A DNA stretch of 64,000 bases from Mobula hypostoma (taxonomy: Eukaryota), in NCBI RefSeq assembly GCF_963921235.1, contig NC_086097.1, forward strand, positions 76,944,001-77,008,000, in the 5' to 3' direction. The notes under the pieces are model-generated. The model was not told the origin of the DNA and searched no databases. It saw only the letters and a list, made by a program, of their open reading frames with translations. Below, one piece after another: positions 1 through 49,739 of this stretch (position 1 is the stretch's first letter; the number at the start of each line of letters is the position of its first letter). The position numbers and the translations under genes are program-made.

Positions 1-872
1 GGGATGCAATATATGATGTGGTGATGTGATGACGTACACCACTCACGTACTTCTTACATAAAACCCACAATGAATTATGTTATCAGCAAGGAATGCTTAA
101 TCAAACAATATACAATATTTACAATATTACTCAAATTTTACTGAAATATTAAATACACTTTGTTATCTAGTTCATTAGCTTGTATCTTCATTGAGAGTAC
201 CAGGAAGAAGTGCTTGTAAAGCTTTAAAGTGACAAGAACCTCTTGCATGTGAACCAATATTAACCTCAGTGTAATATAAATAGAGGTAACATTTAAAAGA
301 ACCATCCTGCTCTGCACCAACAGAATGACATTGATCACTCCTTTCATTGGCAGTTGCTTGCCGTGTTTTTGAGGGTTCCATGGGGTACCTGTGAATGCTG
401 TGAGCACCATTGAGCTTCTTAAATAAAATTCAACAGTCATTAGATAGCAGAGAACATAAATAAAATTCAAACAAGCTTCAGAAATCAAAATGTGGACTTT
501 AAAGCAGTAATTATCATTAATGTATCTTTTAAAATTCAATTTGCTCTCGAATGCAGTAGTCATACGTTCTGAGTTCTTTTAGTGGAAGACTTGAGATGAA
601 ATATCCCAAGCACCTTCCTTAACACAATGCATTCTTGTAGAAGAGCAAGGTTTTTCTGAGAACCCTTGAAATTCCCACATGGGGCTGTATATATGTATAA
701 GCCAAGGATTGCTGTCAGACTCCATTGCAATGAGCACATTCTGAAAGCTTGTACATTAGGATGTGTTCCTTTATCCCAGAATTTTCTAGTCAATCCACAT
801 TTTATTAATGGCATGCATTGTTTTTCCAGTAAATCGGAACCAATATTAAGGAAGTAAATATGTTTTTTTAAG

Positions 873-985
873 GTGGAGCAGCCATTGCGGTCAAAGAAGA
901 CAGGGTGGCATAAACTTATGTCCAAACAACGCAAACGAGCTGTGGTTGCCTGCTTCCGGATGGCACCACTTTATAACCTTCCCAG
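873..985 (+). CDS. RYR3: RYR3 exon, calmodulin-binding segment ([38 protein letters not shown])
   Basis: ttttttaag acceptor, gtaga donor, 113 nt, phase 0 to 2; matches the RyR CaM-binding motif [19 protein letters not shown]. Confidence 0.96.
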
Positions 986-1650
986 GTAGAAGTAATGCTG
1001 TGTTTTGCATGTAAAGAAGAAAATTATATTTAAACAATCATTTCTATTTATTCTTTATCTCACTTAGCTACTTTCTTGAATTTTATTTTCCAGTTCAAAG
1101 TTGTTTTTTGATAAAGCTGTTGATATATTAACAATCACTCCCAAACTTCATTTCCAAGCTTCAGCTTCCAAGCTGCATGCACTGTTCCAGAAGAATACTG
1201 GAACTCTCTACCATTTGGACTAGAACATCTACAGTAATTTTCCCTGTTAGCATTTCTTCTTCCTTTCTTGTAAGAGAGTACCTCATTTCAATTTGGAGCC
1301 CCAGTTCTGCTTAGGGTTGGGGCAAGAATGTCAAGTCAGAAATCACAGTGCAAACCTATACCTTTTAAGTTCCCTAACTTCACTTGACAAGCTACATTTA
1401 TATTTAATTAACGAAGTTTATGAAGCCAGTCAAAAATCATGTCTGTTGATCACGCTTTACAGAATATATATGCAGTTTTGTCTTTGGCAATCAATAATGT
1501 ACATGCTTAAGAAAAACCATTTTAATGCAATGAACTAGTTGCAGAAACCATGCTTTAATTCACACTACATGGAGAATTATCCCACAGATAATTTAGAAAA
1601 ATCTGTGCTTTTAAATTGATCAATGCAAAACATGTATCCCTTTTCTTTAG

Positions 1651-1750
1651 ACACAAAATTAACATTTACTTCCTGAACGCCTATCAACATCTGTGGCTGG
1701 AAAAACTATATAAGAAAACTGACTTTGAGAATCTTATCGTCTGTTTGGCG
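1651..1750 (+). CDS. RYR3: RYR3 alternative exon A (R-HKINIYFLNAYQHLWLEKLYKKTDFENLIVCLA), mutually exclusive with 3171-3267
   Basis: ccttttctttag acceptor, gtaaag donor, 100 nt, open frame, same phase 2 to 0 as exon B, and aligns to it (H..N..FL..Y...W.E......E.LI..LA). Confidence 0.85.
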
Positions 1751-1906
1751 GTAAAGTAACATTTGATTGATAGACACTGCTTCCTACCCTGTGCAATCAT
1801 TTCTCTTGCCACACCAACCATCTTCAATTTGTACAGTAAACCTTACAGAATCTGATTGGTCAATCCATCAACCAAAACTTTCAGCAATCTTGCATGAAGA
1901 AAGATA

Positions 1907-2469
1907 CACACAGTGGCTATTTTATTAGGTACACCTGTACACCTTGTTAATGCAAATATCCAATCAGACAATCAAATGGCAGCAATGCAATGCACAAAAG
2001 CATGCAGACATGGTCAAGACGGTTTAGCTATTGTTCAGAACAAACATCAGAACAGGGAAGTAAAGTGACCTAAGTGACTTTGACTGTGGAATGAATGTTG
2101 GTACCAGACAGGGTGGTTTGAGTATCTCAGAGACTAGCTGTCTCCTGGGATTTTCACGTACAACAGTCTCTAGAGTTTACAGAGAACAGTGTGGAAAAAC
2201 AAAAGTCATCCAGTGAGCGGCTGTCCTATGGGTGAAAATGCCTTATTAATCAGAGAGGTTGGAGGAGAATGGCTAGTTTCATTCAGGATGATAGGAAGGC
2301 AATGGTAACTCAAATAACCTTGCGTTGCAACAGTCAAGTGCAGCAGAGCGTCTCTGAACGAACATCACATCAAACCTGGAAATGGGGGGACTGAAGATCA
2401 CACTGAGTTCCACTTCGGTGACCACTTTAATAGGTACATTTGTGTACCTACTAAAATGGCCACTGAACA
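1907..2469 (+). mobile_element. Non-autonomous Tc1/mariner element
   Basis: About 28-bp imperfect TIRs (CAGTGGCTATTTTATTAGGTACAC / GTGTACCTACTAAAATGGCCACTG) with flanking TA. Interior encodes a decayed Tc1 transposase N-terminus (DLSDFD.G..VG.R..GLSISET..LLGFSRTTVSRVYRE). Confidence 0.85.
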
Positions 2470-3170
2470 TATAAAAAATAGCATATTAATCTTTAAAGGC
2501 ATCATAAATGCACATTATGTTTTTCTCTTGTAAAGTTAATACACTTCAAGAGGCGCTGCATTTCTGTGTTACAGCACATGAGGACAAAGGATTCTAACCA
2601 ATTATAACCAGTGGAGTGTTAACTTCCATTGTCATCTGAAATTTTATGCTATTACTTTCACAGAGAAGTTGAGGATGCATCAGCAATATTTCTTGTGAGA
2701 TACTGGAAGAAGGATGGAGGGTGGGGAGGAACAAATTTAAGCAGACCTTCAAGATTCAAGAATCCTTTTGCTAGCTGTTACCAATACTTGGGCTAACTAC
2801 AGTGTAGTCCAAAATTGTACTTAAAACAAGTGAACCCGATGACATGTGTAACTAACCATAACAGCGAATGCCTGTTACGATGAAACAGCGTTCATCCTAT
2901 TTCTGTCTCCTTGTTTTTTTCTTTCATTTCAGTTGCACACGAACATTAAAACTCTTGAGAACCATTTTATACGCCATTCATACTTTAGTTAGCACTGTCA
3001 TGATATATAATCTTGGTACACCATTGACCAATCAGAGAGCTGAAGTTGTACAAATCTCTACTAATAGACTTATACTGTTATTTCAATTAATAAGAGTCTC
3101 CCTTAATCTACTAAAAGATGTCTCTCACCTCCCACTCCTCCCAATCTTACTATACCCTCCCGCTTCCTAG

Positions 3171-3267
3171 GCATCGTGCTGTTAATCTCTTCCTTCAGAG
3201 TTATCTGAAATCATGGATAGAGACAGAGGAGTACTCTTTTGAGGAGAAACTAATTGAGGATTTAGCT
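3171..3267 (+). CDS. RYR3: RYR3 alternative exon B (R-HRAVNLFLQSYLKSWIETEEYSFEEKLIEDLA), canonical RyR-like version
   Basis: Long C/T tract ending cttcctag, gtaagt donor, 97 nt, phase 2 to 0. Confidence 0.95.
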
Positions 3268-4139
3268 GTAAGTACTGGCCCCTGTGCAACTGGTTTCTAC
3301 CTTTAGCACAAGTGGCCATGCTGCATTCTGCAAGTAGTGCTGTTGCCAAGCTGTCTACAACCTGTGCACCTTTCTCTGTCAATTCTAAAAGGTTGGTTTG
3401 GGGGTAGTTGTTTTCCCTTGATGCTTTGCATTGGAAATTGGAATGAAAACTTGGCTACTGTGAATGGTAGGTACTTTTTGAGCTGAGTAAGATGGACTGG
3501 CTTTTGCATTCATCAGCTTGAACTTGGCACTGAATCTGAAATAACACATTGTGGAAGTAATAATTTGGTGATAGTTGTCTGCAAGAATTGATTATTCTGG
3601 AGTAACAATACTTTAAATAAATTGAAAGGATTTTTTTTTTGTGAGTGAGATTTGATCTGTATTCCTAAACTAGAAACTGAATGCTATTTATAATTTAGTT
3701 TCTACTCAGAATATTTTTTTTATATTTTAAGTATTACTTTCACCTCTTTCTCCATTAAAAATGATCTAGCCCAGCAGATGGCAACTGACCTACTTCTATA
3801 CCAAGGCCAATGTTCACTGCAACTGGTTCCCATTACATACTGAAGAGTTGCAGACAGTAATTGTGAACAAGTCTTCTGCCCTTCCCAGGGTAGAAGTATG
3901 TCAGTTTCCTTTTGAAAGAATGGACAATTGACAGAGCTCCAAACCCTCAATGTCTGGGTGGTGGAGCAGTGTCATTAGCCACTAACCTTTGTTTCTCATT
4001 GGATGAGAGAGGATCCATGGCTACAATGTTGATATGCACTGGAGAGCTATTGCTGCATGCTTAATTATGAAATGATACATTGCTGAGTGTGTTACAAGGC
4101 TTCAAAGTAACCCAGAACATGAAGACGGCGGGGGGGGGG

Positions 4140-7594: not shown

Positions 7595-8115
7595 AACAGC
7601 ACACACAAAAAACGCTGGTGAACGCAACAGGCCAGGCAGTATCTATAGGAAGAGGTACAGTCAACGTTTCGGGCCAAGACCCTTCGTCAGGATTAACTGA
7701 AAGAAGAGATAGTAAGAGATTTGAAAGTGGGAGGAGGAGGGGGAGATCCAAAATGATAGGAGAAGACAGGAGGGGGAAGTATGGAGCTAAGAGAGGATCA
7801 TCGGACAGGAGGCTTAGGGAGAACGATGATCCTCTCCCTTCTCCAGCCTTGTATCCCTTTTGCCAATCAACTTTCCTGCTCTTAGCTCCATCCCTCCTGC
7901 TCCTGTCTTCTCCTATCATTTCGGATCTCCCCCTCCCCCTCCCACTTTCAAATCTCTTGCTATCTCTTCTTTCAGTTAGTCCTGACGAAGGGTCTTGGCC
8001 CAAAACGTCGACTGTACCTCTTCCTATAGATGCTGCTTGGCCTGCTGCGTTCACCAGCGTTTTTTGCATGCATTGCTTGAATTTCCAGCATCTGCAGATT
8101 TCCTCGTGCTTGCGC
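7595..8115. mobile_element. Penelope-derived fold-back (palindromic) non-autonomous element
   Basis: The first about 200 nt are the reverse complement of about 7875-8070. The arms match the termini of the 40810-44000 Penelope, and each arm carries a hammerhead-like motif. Confidence 0.88.
7659..7694 (-). ncRNA. Minimal hammerhead ribozyme motif of the Penelope pLTR (core intact)
   Basis: Minus strand AATC-CTGACGA-AGGGTCTTGGCCC-GAAAC-GTT-GACT: CUGANGA and GAAA core, GGG/CCC stem II, NUH triplet. Confidence 0.65.
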
Positions 8116-12561: not shown

Positions 12562-12668
12562 AAATCCACAACTGCATCAGAAGAGGAGGAGGAAGAGTCC
12601 GAGAAGACACCTGACCCACTTCATCAGCTTATACTACACTTCAGTCGTACTGCCCTCACTGAACGAAG
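12562..12668 (+). CDS. RYR3: RYR3 exon ([36 protein letters not shown])
   Basis: ttag acceptor, gtac donor, 107 nt, phase 0 to 2; [15 protein letters not shown] motif. Confidence 0.92.
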
Positions 12669-14365: not shown

Positions 14366-17300
14366 ACCATATAGCCATATAACAATTACAGCACAGAAAC
14401 AGACCATCTCGGCCCTTCTAGTCCATGCCAAACTCTTACCCTATCCTAGTCCCACCAACCTGCACTCAGCCCATAACCCTCCATTCCTTTCCTGCCCATA
14501 TATCTATCCAATTTAACCTTAAACGACAACATAGAATCTGCCTCAACCACTTCTGCTGGAAGCTCATTCCACACAGCTACCACTCTCTGAATAAAGAAGT
14601 TCCCCCTCATGTTACCCCTAAAATTTTGTCCTCTATTTCTCAACCCATGTCCTCTTGTTTGAATCTTCCCCACTCTCAATGGAAAAAGTCTAACCACGTC
14701 AACTCTATCAAACCCCCTCATAATTTTAAACACCTCTATCAAGTCCCCCCTCAACCTTCTACAATCCAAAGAATAAAGACCTAACTTGTTCAACCTTTCT
14801 CTGTAACTTAGGAGATGAAACCCAGGCAACATTTTAGTAAACCTCCTCTGTACTCCCTCAATTTTATCGACATCTTTCCTATAATTCGGTGACCAGAACT
14901 GTACACAATACTCCCGAATTGGCCTTACCAATGCCTTATACAAATTCAACATTACATCCCAATTCCTATACTCAATGCTCTGATTAATAAAGGCCAGCAA
15001 AGCAAAAGCTTTCTTCACCACCCTATCCACATGAGATTCCATCTTCAGGGAACTATGCACCATCATTCCTAGATCCCTCTGTTCTAAAGCATTCTTTAAT
15101 GCCCTACCATTTACCATGTATGTCCTATTTTGATTAGTCCTACCGAAATGTAGCACCTCACATTTATCAGCATTAAACTCCATCTGCCATCTTTCAGCCC
15201 ACTCTTCTAACTGGCCTAAATCTCTCTGCAAGTTTTGAAAACCTACCTCATCATCCACAACACCACCTATCTTAGTGTCATCTGCATACTTTCTAATCCA
15301 ATTTACCACCCCATCATCCAGATCATTAATATGTATTACAAACAACATTGGACCCAATACAGATCCCTGAGGCACGCCACTACACACCATCCTCTAATCT
15401 GACACACAGTTGTCCACCACTACTCTCTAGCATCTCCCATCCAGCCACTGCTGAATCCATTTTAATACTTCCATATTAATGCCTTATGATTGAACCTTCC
15501 TAACTAACCTTCCGTGTGGAACCTTGTTAAAGGCCTTACTGAAGTCCATATAGACAACATCCACCGTTTTACCCTCATCAACTTTCTTAGTAACCTCTTC
15601 AAAAAATTCAATAAGATTTGTCAAACATGACCTTCTACGCACAAATCCATGTTGACTGTTCCTAATCAGACCCTGTCTATCCAGAAAATTATATATACCA
15701 TCTCTAAGAATACTTTCCATCAATTTACCCACCACTGACGTCAAACTCACAGGCCAATAATTGTGAGGTTTACTCTTAGAACCCTTTTTAAACAATGGAA
15801 CCACATGAGCAATACGCCAATCCTCCGGCACCATTTCCGTTTCTAATGACATTTGAAATATTTCTGTCAGAGCCCCTGCTATTTCTACGCTAACTTCCCT
15901 CAAAGTGCTAGGGAATATCTTGTCTGGACCCAGAGACTTATCCACTTTTATATTCCTTAAAAGTGCCAGTAATTCCTCTTCTTTAATTGTCATACTTTCC
16001 GTAACTATCCTAATTGCTTCCTTTACCTTATACAATTCAATATCTTTCTCCTTAGTGAATACTGAAGAAAAGAAATTGTTCAAAATCTGCCCCATCTCTT
16101 TTGGCTCCGCACATAGCCGTCCACTCTGATTCTCCAAGGGACCAATTTTATTCCTCACTATCCTTTTGCCACTAACATAACTGTAGAAACCCTTTGGATT
16201 TATTTTCACCTTACTTGCCAAAGCAGCCTTGTATCTTCTTTTAGCTCTTCTAATTTCTTTCTCAAGATTCTTTTTACATTCTTTATATTCCTCGAGTACT
16301 TCATTAACTCCAAGCTGCCTATATTTATTGAAGATCCCTCTCTTTTTCTGAACCAAGTTTCTAATATCTCTTGAACCCATGGCTCTCTCAAACTTTTAAC
16401 CTTTCCTTTCAACCTAACAGGAACATAAAGATTCTGAACCCTCAAAATTTCACCTTTAAATGACCTCCATTTCTCTGTTACATCCTTCCCATAAAACAAA
16501 CTTTCCCAATCCACTCCTAAGTCCTTTCGCATCTCCTCAAAGTTAGCCTTTCTACAATCAAAGATCTCCATCATAGGTCCAGTCCTATCCCTCTCCATAA
16601 TTACACTGAAACTAATTGTATTGTGATCACTGGACCCGAAGTGCTCCCCAACAAATACCTCCATCACCTGCCCTGTCTCATTCCCTAACAGGAGATCCAA
16701 CATTGCCCCTTCTCTAGTTGGTACCTCTATGTATTGCTTCAAAAAACTATCCTGCGCACATTTTACAAACTCCAAACTATCCAGCCCTTTTACAGAATGG
16801 GCTTTCCAGTCTATGTGTGGAAAATTAAAATCTCCCACAATCACAACCTTGTGCTTACTACAAATATCTGCTGTCTCCTTACAAATTTGCTCCTCCAGTT
16901 CTCGGTCCCCATTAGGTGGTCTATAATACACCCCTATAAGCGTCACAACACCTTTCCTATTCCTCAATTCCACCCAAATAGCCTCCCTAGATGAGTCCAC
17001 TAATCTATCCTGCCAGAGCACCGCTGTTATATAATCTCTGACAAGCAATGCAACACCTCCCCCTCTTGCCCCTCCTATTCTATCACACCTGAAGCAACGA
17101 AATCCTGGAATATTTAGTTGCCAGTCACACCCCTCCTGCAACCATGTTTCACTAATAGCTACAACGTCATATTTCCATGTATCAATCTATGCTCAAGTTC
17201 ATCCACCTTTCTTACAATGCTCCTGGCATTAAAACTGATGCATTTAAGAAACTCTCCACCTCCCACTCTCTGTTTATCCTTAATTGAGCAAACAACTTTG

Positions 17301-40809: not shown

Positions 40810-43800
40810 CAACAACACACATCAAAGTTGCTGGTGAACGCAGCAGGCCAAGCAGCATCTGTAGGAAGAGGTGCAGTCGACGTTTCAGGCCGAGACCCTT
40901 TGTCAGGACTAACTGAAGGAAGAGTGAGTAAGGGACTTGAAAGTTGGAGGGGGAGGGGGAGATCCAAAATGATAGGAGAAGACAGGAGGGGGAGGGATAG
41001 AGCCGAGAGCTGGACAGGTGATAGGCAAAAGGGGATACGAGAGGATCATGGGACAGGAGGTCCGGGAAGAAAGACAAGGGGGGGGGGACCCAGAGGATGG
41101 GCAAGAGGTATATTCAGAGGGACAGAGGGAGAAAAGGGAGAGTGAGAGAAAGAATGTGTGCATAAAAATAAGTAACAGATGGGGTACGAGGGGGAGGTGG
41201 GGCCTAGCGGAAGTTAGAGAAGTCGATGTTCATGCCATCAGGTTGGAGGCTACCCAGACGGAATATAAGGTGTTGTTCCTCCAACCTGAGTGTGGCTTCA
41301 TCTTTACAGTAGAGGAGGCCGTGGATAGACATGTCAGAATGGGAATGGGATGTGGAATTAAAATGTGTGGCCACTGGGAGATCCTGCTTTCTCTGGCGGA
41401 CAGAGCGTAGATGTTCAGCAAAGCGGTCTCCCAGTCTGCGTCGGGTCTCGCCAATATATAAAAGGCCACATCGGGAGCACCGGACGCAGTATATCACCCC
41501 AGTCGACTCACAGGTGAAGTGTTGCCTCACCCGGAAGGACTGTTTGGGGCCCTGAATGGTGGTAAGGGAGGAAGTGTAAGGGCATGTGTAGCACTTGTTC
41601 CGCTTACACGGATAAGTGCCAGGAGGGAGATCAGTGGGGAGGGATGGGGGGGGATGAATGGACAAGGGATGCGTAGGGAGCGATCCCTGCGGAATGCAGA
41701 GAGAGGGGGGAGGGAAAGATGTGCTTAGTGGTGGGATCCCGTTGGAGGTGGCGGAAGTTACGGAGAATAATACGTTGGACCCGGAGGCTGGTGGGGTGGT
41801 AGGTGAGGACCAGGGGAACCCTATTCCTAGTGGGGTGGCGGGAGGATGGAGTGACAGCAGATGTACATGAAATGGGGGAGATGCGTTTAAGAACAGAGTT
41901 GATAGTGGAGGAAGGGAAGCCCCTTTCTTTAAAAAAGGAAGACATCTTCCTCGTCCTAGAATGAAAAGCCTCATCCTGAGAGCAGATGCGGCGGAGACGG
42001 AGGAATTGCGAGAAGGGGATGGCGTTTTTGCAAGAGACAGGGTGAGAAGAGGAATAGTCCAGATAGCTGTGAGAGTCAGTAGGCTTATAGTAGACATCAG
42101 TGGATAAGCTGTCTCCAGAGACAGAGACAGAAAGATCTAGAAAGGGGAGGGAGATGTCGGAAATGGACCAGGTAAACTTGAGGGCAGGGTGAAAGTTGGA
42201 GGCAAAGTTAATAAAGTGAACGAGTTCTGCATGCGTGCAGGAAGCAGCGCCAATGCAGTCGTCGATGGAGTTTGGAGGAAGTGGGAGGAGCCAAAGGAGA
42301 AATTACTAAGAGTAAGGACTAATTCCGCTAGACGGAGCAGAGTGGTGGTAGAGGGGAACTGATTAGGTCTGTATTCCACTTCCTCCAAACTCAAGGTGTA
42401 GCTATGGGCACCCGTATGGGTCCTAGCTATGCCTGCCTTTTTGTTGGGTTTGTGGAACAATCTATGTTCTGTGCCTATTCTGGTATCTGTCCCCCACTTT
42501 TCCTTCGCTACATCGACGGTTGCATTGGCGCTGCTTCCTGCATGCATGCAGAACTCGTTGACTTTATTAACTTTGCCTCCAACTTTCACCCTGCCCTCAA
42601 GTTTACCTAGTCCATTTCCGACATCTTCCTCCCCTTTCCAGATCTTTCTGTCTCTGTCTCTGGAGACAGCTTATCCACTGATGTCTACTATAAGCCTACT
42701 GACTCTCACAGCTATCTGGAATATTCCTCTTCTCACCCTGTCTCTTGCAAAAACGCCATCCCCTTCTCGCAATTCCTCCGTCTCCGCCGCATCTGCTCTC
42801 AGGATGAGGCTTTTCATTCTAGGACGAGGGAGATGTCTTCCTTTTTTAAAGAAAGGGGCTTCCCTTTCTCCACTATCAACTCTGCTCTTAAACGCATCTC
42901 CCCCATTTCACGTACATCTGCTCTCACTGCATCCTCCCGCCACCCCACTAGGAATAGGGTTCCCCTGGTCCTCACCTACCACCCCACCAGCCTCCAGGTC
43001 CAACATATTATTCTCCGTAACTTCCGCCACCTCCAACGGGATCCCACCACTAAGCACATCTTTCCCTCCCCCCCTCTCTCTGCATTCCGCAGGGATCACT
43101 CCCTACACAAAACCCTTGTCCATTCGTCCCCCCCATCCCTCCCCACTGATCTCCCTCCTGGCACTTATCCGTGTAAGCGGAACAAGTGCCACACATGCCC
43201 TTACACTTCCTCCCCTACCACCATTCAGGGTCCCAAACAGTCCTTCCAGCTGAGGCATCACTTCACCTGTGAGTCGACTGGGGTGATATACTGCGTCCGG
43301 TGCTCCCGATGTGTCCTTTTATATATTGGCGAGACCCGACGCAGACTGGGAGACCACTTTGCTGAACATCTATGCTCTGTCCGCCAGAGAAAGCAGGATC
43401 TCCCAGTGGCCACACATTTTAATTCCACATCCCATTCCCATTCTGACATGTCTAACCACGGCCTCCTCTACTGTAAAGGTGAAGCCACACTCAGGTTGGA
43501 GGAACAACACCTTATATTCCGTCTGGGTAGCCTCCAACCTGATGGCATGAACATCGACTTCTCTAACTTCCGCTAGGCTCCACCTCCCCCCATACCCCAT
43601 CTGTTACTTATTTTTATGCACACATTCTTCCTCTCACTCTCCTTTTTCTCCCTCTGTCCCTCTGAATATACCTCTTGCCCATCCTCTGGGTCCCCCCCCA
43701 CCTTGTCTTTCTTCTCGGACCTCCTGTCCCATGATCCTCTCGTATCCCCTTTTGCCTATCACCTGTCCAGCTCTTGGCTCCATCCCTCCCCCTCCTGTCT

Positions 43801-47814: not shown

Positions 47815-48329
47815 TAATATTTTTTACATGCTGAGAAGCTTTAGAAGATTAATCGGAATCTGGTCTAAAAATGGCAACATGTTTAGCTAATGATGTAAAC
47901 ATTTCCATCTATCAAAGTAAATTTTTTCAGACATTTTTATCAGATTTTTTTTACCAGTAATAAAAGTTTTGTTCCATTAGTAAAGAACTGTTCTGCAAGA
48001 TTTCAAATGCTACATTGGATTTAATGGTTAATAATATTGCTTTGATGGTTTATCCTGATTGCATCTTACTTCCTGCTCACTCACTTTAAGTGAGTGTCAT
48101 CTTTGCTTTTGCAACATAAGCTGAGGCAAATTGTTTACTACTTTTTTGTCATTGTTTGAAGATATCAAACATCTTTTGTTAAGTAAATCAGTTAGGAAAA
48201 TTGGATTGTTTTTGTTGAAATAAGTTGCATCATTATTATGGAAATTATTTTATATCATTGCTTAGGAAATTGTATTTTTGAATACATTCTTTGTGTTTAA
48301 TTAGAATTAATATTCTCTTTTAATCTTAG

Positions 48330-49633
48330 GGAATGTCGTAAATGGAACTATAGGTAAACAAATGGTAGACACATTGGTTGAGTCTTCCAGCAATGTGGAG
48401 ATGATACTCAAGTTCTTCGATATGTTTCTTAAATTAAAGGATATAACCACTTCTGATACCTTCAAAGATTTTGATCCAGATGGTAAAGGAATGATTTCAA
48501 AGAAAGAATTCCAAAAGGCTTTGGAAAGTCAGAAGAAATATGCACAGTCAGAAATAGAATTCTTACTATCTTGTGTTGAAGCAGATGAAAATGATTTGTT
48601 TAATTATATGGAATTTATTGACCGCTTTCATGAACCAGCCAAGGATATCGGGTTCAATGTTGCTGTATTACTGACCAATCTATCGGAACACATGCCTAAT
48701 GATATCCGTCTGAAGACATTCTTGCTACCAGCACAAAGTGTCCTCACATACTTTGAGCCCTATTTAGGACGCATTGAAATCATGGGTGCAGCAAAACGCA
48801 TAGAAAGAGTCTACTTTGAAATCAGCGAATCAAGTCGGACACAGTGGGAGAAACCTCAGGTCAAGGAATCCAAAAGGCAGTTCATCTTTGATGTTGTGAA
48901 TGAAGGCGGAGAATCTGAAAAAATGGAACTCTTTGTGAATTTTTGTGAGGACACCATATTTGAAATGCAGTTAGCATCTGAAATCTCTGAGCCAGATGCA
49001 GCTGAAAGAGCTGATGATGATGAAGAAGAGCCTCCTCCAATTGAAGAGGAGGAGGAAGTGGCTCAGCCCTCAAATGCATTTGCGTCAGCTTGTCATGATT
49101 TCAAAGGTGCTCTCCTGAAGTTTTTTGGGATATTCACATTTAGAAATATCAGAAGGCAGTTTAAGAAAATTAAGAGGATGACAACCAAGGAGTTATTGAT
49201 GGCATTTTTCTCCTTCTTCTGGATGTTGTTTATTGGCCTTGTTTTCTTCATCTTCAACATAGTACAAGGATTTTTCCAGATCGTGTGGAATGCCATGTTT
49301 GGGGGTGGACTAGTAGAAGGTGCTAAGAGCATCACGGTCACAGACCTTTTAGCTAGCATGCCGGATCCAACACAACTTGAAATTCATGGAGATGTGAGTG
49401 AGTCAAAAAGGGCAGAAACTCCAGAGACGGGAGTTGTTACAGAGCTTCAGTCTACAGCGCAAGATGAAAAAAGTGAAACTGAGATGATGCCTGATATATT
49501 TGGCATAAATGTGAAAAAAGTAGGCAAGGCAGGAGGTGACACACATGGAGGTCTTGGTGATGTCTCAGAAATTATGGGAACAGAAAGCCCCCCTAGTTTT
49601 GAAAAGGCAGTATCTCAAAAAAAGAAAGCAGAG
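48330..49633 (+). CDS. RYR3: RYR3 large exon (1304 nt): EF-hand pair, U-motif/thumb-forefinger region and start of divergent region 1
   Basis: cttag acceptor, gttagt donor, phase 1 to 0. Contains ORF 48362..49663 minus its intronic tail. EF1 [17 protein letters not shown]2 [13 protein letters not shown], also [17 protein letters not shown] and [10 protein letters not shown]. Confidence 0.96.
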
Positions 49634-49739
49634 GTTAGTTTTAAGCACATATTCTGTTTTTAAAAACATCACTTTAATGTTTTGATTTTCATGAAGCTCA
49701 TGGTCTTTTTTTTAATTGTCCATTGAACCAAATCTCAAG

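Follow-up and report, generated by a model that had tools for sequence, protein, structure and literature searches.

The RYR3 locus and its alternative exons

Judged by its sequence, the gene carried by the window (the whole stretch of Mobula hypostoma DNA analysed here, 64,000 nucleotides long) is RYR3. The large exon at 48311-49660 scored 649 bits on RyR3, compared with 534 on RyR2 and 451 on RyR1, and it grouped with the RyR3 rows, falling outside the groups formed by mammals and by teleosts (support 80, with a loose placement). With three RyR fragments as queries, tblastn placed approximately 20 exons in sequential order across the window. The exons discussed below are:

873..985, + strand: exon U, a constitutive RYR3 exon that codes for the calmodulin-binding segment and ends in phase 2 (AG/GTAGAA), placed by tblastn and by the splice joints leaving 985
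1651..1750, + strand: alternative exon A, 100 nt, 33 aa, preceded by TTTAG and followed by GTAAAG
3171..3267, + strand: alternative exon B, 97 nt, 32 aa, preceded by CCTAG and followed by GTAAGT
12562..12668, + strand: exon D, the next constitutive RYR3 exon, starting in phase 0, placed by tblastn

The first-pass annotation had described two homologous phase 2-0 exons at 1651-1750 and 3171-3267, directly after the calmodulin-binding segment; the coordinates, splice sites and frame all hold, and the swapped segment does begin immediately after the one coded by exon U. Either exon alone preserves the reading frame, and both U-A-D and U-B-D give stop-free translations with the peptides given in that annotation. 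Inclusion of A and B together brings in a stop at codon 76 of the joined sequence, four codons into B, and skipping of both shifts the frame of D, which itself has no internal stop. The claim that exactly one of the two must be used is correct for the protein, since both and neither shift the frame, but it does not prove that the spliceosome acts this way. Exon A had also been singled out as invisible in the ORF track, which is true but does not distinguish it, as B is equally invisible at the 70-aa cut-off.

Global alignment of A against B gave a score of 31, equalled by 1 of 10,000 shuffles, and a profile-profile comparison of the two gave an E value of 1e-5. Among 48 open stretches of 91-106 nt bounded by AG and GT between 986 and 12561, scores above 2 were confined to B itself (164) and to A (31), and no third copy of the exon was found in the 64-kb window. 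The two exons are adjacent, homologous, of like length and of the same phase, and their reading as a tandem duplicated, mutually exclusive pair in RYR3 is supported.

Splice joints in related organisms

For related organisms, we compared four runs (X1, X2, X3 and X6) of 13 listed over positions 820-3400, with exon D lying beyond this stretch. The runs consist of assembled contigs, presumed to be RNA (the run search found six such and none recorded as RNA) and unlabelled for tissue, and pieces at least 85% alike were aligned. The joint 985>1651 (GT..AG) was present in two of the four runs (X3 and X6) and the joint 985>3171 (GT..AG) in three (X1, X3 and X6), while run X2 had no coverage of either alternative exon. 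Of the four junctions for which the first-pass annotation had proposed a check, the two leaving 985 exist in contigs of related organisms. The joint 1750>3171, which would connect A to B, was absent among the 15 joints listed for the four runs over 820-3400 (a further 30 fell outside the listing). In X6, the alignments of one 160-nt and one 157-nt contig stop precisely at 1750 and 3267, leaving 30 letters of each unaligned; this pair resembles a bubble closing on one common downstream exon, from which we infer the joints to D.

By organism, the 985>1651 joint was found in B and C, and exon A in organism C had 0 differences from the window. For organism A, which had 0 differences over exon U, only the joint from U to B was seen, in X1, and exon A was seen in neither X1 nor X2. 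In organism B, exon U had 8 differences over 115 nt, with the six listed all at third positions, and the U-A intron (1010-1669) was mostly tiled by contigs with approximately 4-8% differences, among pieces at least 85% alike. Set against the 8 of 115 in exon U, this level of difference makes the U-A intron look constrained.

Several repeats were observed in the introns of the window. Positions 1864-2560 of the A-B intron hold a high-copy short element with very high depth in all four runs, the B-D intron contains an inverted repeat at 7606-8066 (188-nt arms, 93% complementary and 85 nt apart, likely two head-to-head repeat copies), and reverse-transcriptase-like ORF pieces were found in later introns at 14446-17186 and 41204-43576.

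Conservation and age of the two exon types

Upon comparison with proteins of known structure, the only PDB match of exon A was mink RyR3 (9c1e, residues 3494-3525), whereas exon B had 38 matches, in RyR2 and RyR1 entries, with 9c1e absent from them; no B-form RyR3 structure was found in that search. The peptide of exon U occurs in 94 proteins, five of which continue into an A-type segment: seal (A then D), plaice, grenadier, Lucifuga and one further record. B-type segments follow U in the two lamprey records and in those RyR1/2-type records that extend into the next exon. A single-sequence search with exon A returned no matches; a five-row profile of the exon found 20 proteins among 298 candidates, and later 28 representatives, of which seven were dropped as repeat-like or unrelated. 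Three teleost gene models (P0040, P0050 and P0070) wrongly combine A with all or part of B, patched with filler residues.

Two contigs that are fish-like by their peptides (L001 and L002) carry A (100 nt) followed by B (97 nt), with AG and GT ends and the same phase and donors; a further locus (L003) had neither exon. The B donor GTAAGTAC is identical at window positions 3268-3275, L001:1507-1514 and L002:1314-1321, and the A donor is identical up to +6 in the window and L002. Exon B of L002 (1217-1313) codes for Arg at a position occupied by Trp in L001 and the window as well as in the 30 B-type peptides, which may be an allele or an assembly error.

In an unrooted tree of 43 rows and 32 columns, built with no outgroup, the A and B peptides split across one branch (100/100) of approximately 2.4 changes per column. 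Exon A resembles its counterparts in other species more than it does the B exon beside it, shares the splice sites and phase of those counterparts, and has 16 of 33 residues in common with the mammalian A type. Rough estimates over 33 codons, with low dS, gave dN and dS for exon A of 0.32 and 0.52 against one fish locus and 0.49 and 1.0 against the other; dN is below dS in both comparisons, which is the outcome of the dN/dS check proposed in the first-pass annotation. Amino-acid change was about two times faster in A than in B (dN 0.32-0.49 vs 0.18-0.19 against L001 and L002). Mammals and fishes alike retain the length, phase and splice sites of A and its place in the exon order, and the orthologues of the two exons are:

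Exon A: hsapMXE24779601 / ENST00000634418 (human RYR3) and mink RyR3 residues 3495-3527
Exon B: the human ENST00000634891 exon, of a type common to RyR1, RyR2 and lamprey RyR

Site, lengths, phase and peptide types all agree with the mammalian RYR3 A/B pair, supporting the orthology that the first-pass annotation had raised. Among the alternatively spliced RyR3 transcripts of mink that Marziali described in 1996, a mutually exclusive A/B exon is reportedly found. The human pair is cluster 1006 in the tables of Hatje 2017 (PMC5740500), with frame 2-0 and lengths of 100 and 97 nt. The same tables give differential inclusion of the pair across a tissue atlas (adjusted P 8e-5 and 7e-7) and also in the embryonic set; the ENCODE set shows no differential inclusion of B (adjusted P 0.86) and gives NA for A. 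As we read the columns, B is more restricted in human and highest in brain. In Martinez Gomez 2021 (PMC8373072), RYR3 is event 180 with Gnathostomata as its last common ancestor, and 84.3% of such human events are dated to jawed vertebrates; rows 390-391 of the supplement give overlapping human RYR3 exon coordinates (33815834-33815933 and 33815862-33815958), an apparent table slip. Event 180 and cluster 1006 share with the pair described here the gene, site, lengths, frame 2-0 and peptide types, and differ in species only. The switch had been suggested to predate the split from bony fish, and it does, with A-type exons in seal, teleosts and the fish-like contigs, but both the exon switch and its jawed-vertebrate age are already known. 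We are highly confident that the two exons form a tandem duplicated RYR3 pair, each joined to U in related organisms, and likely the same either-or switch as in human RYR3.

A related system is the insect RyR, in which exons in SPRY2 and close to the calmodulin site are alternatively used (Troczka 2018, PMC6026295). The channel family and the occurrence of alternative splicing near that site are alike, whereas the exon position (SPRY2 or calmodulin site) is different, and Martinez-Gomez 2022 (PMC9741552) filed RYR3 against fly RyR as "different region, convergent" in its listing.

Two other accounts of exon A need to be weighed. It is extremely improbable that the A copy is dead, or seldom used, in this lineage, even though it went unseen in the two organism A runs, its window copy sits on a long end branch (0.45), and the organism B change 1705 A>T replaces a lysine by codon reading. 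The exon has an open frame and canonical splice sites, it is joined to U in organisms B and C with no differences over A in C, its dN is below dS against both fish loci, and 12-17 of its 33 residues are identical to homologues. The first-pass annotation had named missing junction reads, with stops or lost splice sites in relatives, as the signs of a dead duplicate; instead, joints into 1651 exist and relatives retain the frame and splice sites, and the splice joints have already largely refuted the idea. For the origin of the pair, we think it quite likely that B would be the older type and that A would be a duplicate that formed in RYR3 ahead of the split of jawed vertebrates and was kept after diverging. 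A duplication predating RYR3 and then lost from RYR1, RYR2 and lamprey is improbable: the A-B branch is long and unrooted, as this history would allow, and unannotated intronic exons cannot show in protein records, but the A-type peptides that could be placed are all among RyR3 rows (P0040, P0050 and P0070) or named RyR3 (P0004 and 9c1e), and the two lamprey records and the continuing RyR1/2-type records are B-type. Lamprey was also among the species searched in Martinez Gomez 2021 (PMC8373072), which dates the event to Gnathostomata.

Complementary arms in the A-B intron

Inside the intron separating A from B lie two complementary arms:

1851..1864, + strand: arm X, at +101 from the A donor, a perfect complement of Y, with 12 nt identical in L002
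3023..3036, + strand: arm Y, at -148 from the B acceptor (spanning 135-148 nt), with 13 nt (3022-3034) identical in L002

The arms form 14 of 14 Watson-Crick pairs, a result that 0 of 100 shuffles reached in a test covering six region pairs per locus, and they are the longest complementary pair of 20 introns, the next being 10. They are also the only exact matches of at least 12 nt between the A-B introns of the window and L002, at like distances from the exons, and two such matches arose in 1 of 500 shuffles. Arm X is translated at the same place in four L002-type read-through proteins (P0096, P0097, P0104 and P0106, two identified by pattern match and two by eye) among the 13 records with enough downstream sequence. 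The gapped duplex of L002 was reached by 19 of 300 shuffles. In L001, there was no match of at least 12 nt to the window intron and the gapped duplex was not significant (30 of 300 shuffles); both arms there are changed at matching places with a 7-base stem retained, where the homology of the sites comes from our own alignment and three introns were compared. Conserved complementary intronic elements are accordingly found in the window and L002, and are weak in L001.

Pairing of X with other partners was within background: values of -11.0 for the region upstream of A and -11.8 for the region from B on to 4300 compare with -9.5 to -16.5 for 40 random stretches. We rejected the idea that arm X competes with the branch-point-like site of A (1615-1624), where pairing was also at background. 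Two rival partners flanking different exons, the mark of competing structures, were not found. Such structures control splicing of the ATE1 and Dscam type (PMC7797038 and PMC6071210), with ATE1 exons 7a/7b governed by the competing pairings R1R3 and R3R4 (Kalinina 2021, PMC7797038). Like ATE1, RYR3 has mutually exclusive exons in tandem and complementary elements conserved in the intron; however, the ATE1 pairings compete and hide 3' splice sites, whereas RYR3 has one predicted duplex, with Y 135-148 nt from the acceptor. In the portions of PMC8373072 and PMC5740500 consulted, neither names an RYR3 intronic duplex, and one of the X:Y type was not found in print in the sources covered, including the supplements of Kalmykova 2021 (0 occurrences of "RYR3") and Hatje 2017, although catalogue tables may list it. 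The X:Y arms are one addition to the published exon switch, not found in print.

Three TGCATG motifs lie near exon A, at 1006 and 1174 in the U-A intron (2 vs 0.2 expected at the window rate) and at 1891 after A; we take TGCATG to be an RBFOX-type motif. A TGCATG at 1519 in L002 adjoins a site that pairs with the L002 arm X (-18.8 kcal/mol), and its counterpart was not found in the window. We also rejected a hairpin after the B donor (3268-3330), which had a z of -3.15 in one window and -0.73 in a wider one, folded in one of six windows and left no sign in the fish alignment.

Exclusivity and exon choice

The A-B intron is 1,420 nt long, the AG-free zone before B is only 53 nt, and such zones were short in three loci (26-80 nt). 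Steric exclusion is unlikely because of this long intron and these short zones, leaving exclusion by a distant branch point unsupported. Transcripts with both or neither exon would likely be frameshifted and removed by nonsense-mediated decay, and exclusivity would be most simply backed by frameshift together with decay. By analogy with human, where B is more brain-restricted, exon choice is quite probably tissue-dependent. For the arms, it is fairly likely that an X:Y duplex would form in the pre-mRNA, and we tentatively propose that it could help set the choice between A and B. That the duplex, kept since the jawed-vertebrate ancestor and looping out approximately 1.16 kb, is the cis-element setting RYR3 A/B choice is somewhat less likely than not.

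Two explanations would do without such a role. A and B could be independent cassettes, exclusive only through decay of frameshifted products and uncoupled at the splicing step, and the frame shift caused by both and by neither, as well as the unlikelihood of steric exclusion with a 1,420-nt intron and a 53-nt AG-free zone, are in line with this; for 377 human clusters (60%), moreover, Hatje 2017 (PMC5740500) gives lengths that are not multiples of three. Yet reads joining the exons appear in only 83 of these 377 clusters (Hatje 2017, PMC5740500), and the A-B intron holds the conserved complementary pair; this account is rather unlikely. It is similarly unlikely that X and Y are conserved DNA- or protein-binding elements that are complementary as the same motif in opposite directions. 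Both arms presumably read as a CCAAT / Y box. CCAAT stands on one strand of both, the window and L002 arms are identical and hence show no covariation, and the gapped duplexes were reached by the numbers of L001 and L002 shuffles given above; but a shared motif fits less well with 14 perfect pairs that no shuffle reached and that no other intron approached in length, with a second partner in L002, which pairs over 13 bases although CCAAT is broken in it (3 of 100 shuffles), or with the alteration of both L001 arms at matching places, the 7-base stem being kept, in our alignment.

Position in the channel and significance

The swapped 32-33 residues correspond to mink RyR3 3495-3527, the opening of Csol directly after the calmodulin-binding linker, and the calmodulin helix itself is coded in exon U, outside the swapped segment. 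According to the supplement of Chen 2024 (PMC11452665), Csol of mink RyR3 spans 3487-4014 and Bsol ends at 3462; the linker between Bsol and Csol binds calmodulin and S100A1 in RyR1 (PMC11228480 and PMC9168041). Exon A has a net charge of +1 and exon B of -4, so the acidic stretch that the first-pass annotation saw swapped for a basic one is present in the window. It does not stand as a conserved trait: the 24 A-type homologue peptides comprise 12 positive, 3 neutral and 9 negative, and the basic charge of A is not retained in one fish paralogue type, whereas all 30 distinct B-type peptides range from -2 to -6. Given these 9 negative peptides among 24, we rejected "basic" as a conserved property of A, for which "less acidic" is the safer description.

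The chances are evenly balanced that the swap would retune the coupling of the calmodulin/S100A1 linker to the core, and hence gating. The literature searched contained no report that A and B channels differ in function. The mink structures 9C1E/9C1F (Chen 2024, PMC11452665) carry the A-type segment at 3495-3527, and the main text of that article has 0 occurrences of "splic" or "exon"; the high open probability of the 9c1e RyR3 may be specific to the A form. With the only RyR3 sequence in the PDB set searched being the A form, in a paper whose main text leaves splicing aside, gating of A versus B is a directly testable question.

On its own, the exon pair adds one more species to a published event. 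What could matter to RyR and splicing specialists is the gating of A versus B and the X:Y pair, a specific candidate for a control element. If its proposed role is true, the X:Y pair would be an antisense handle for switching RyR3 between two forms, only A of which is structurally solved.
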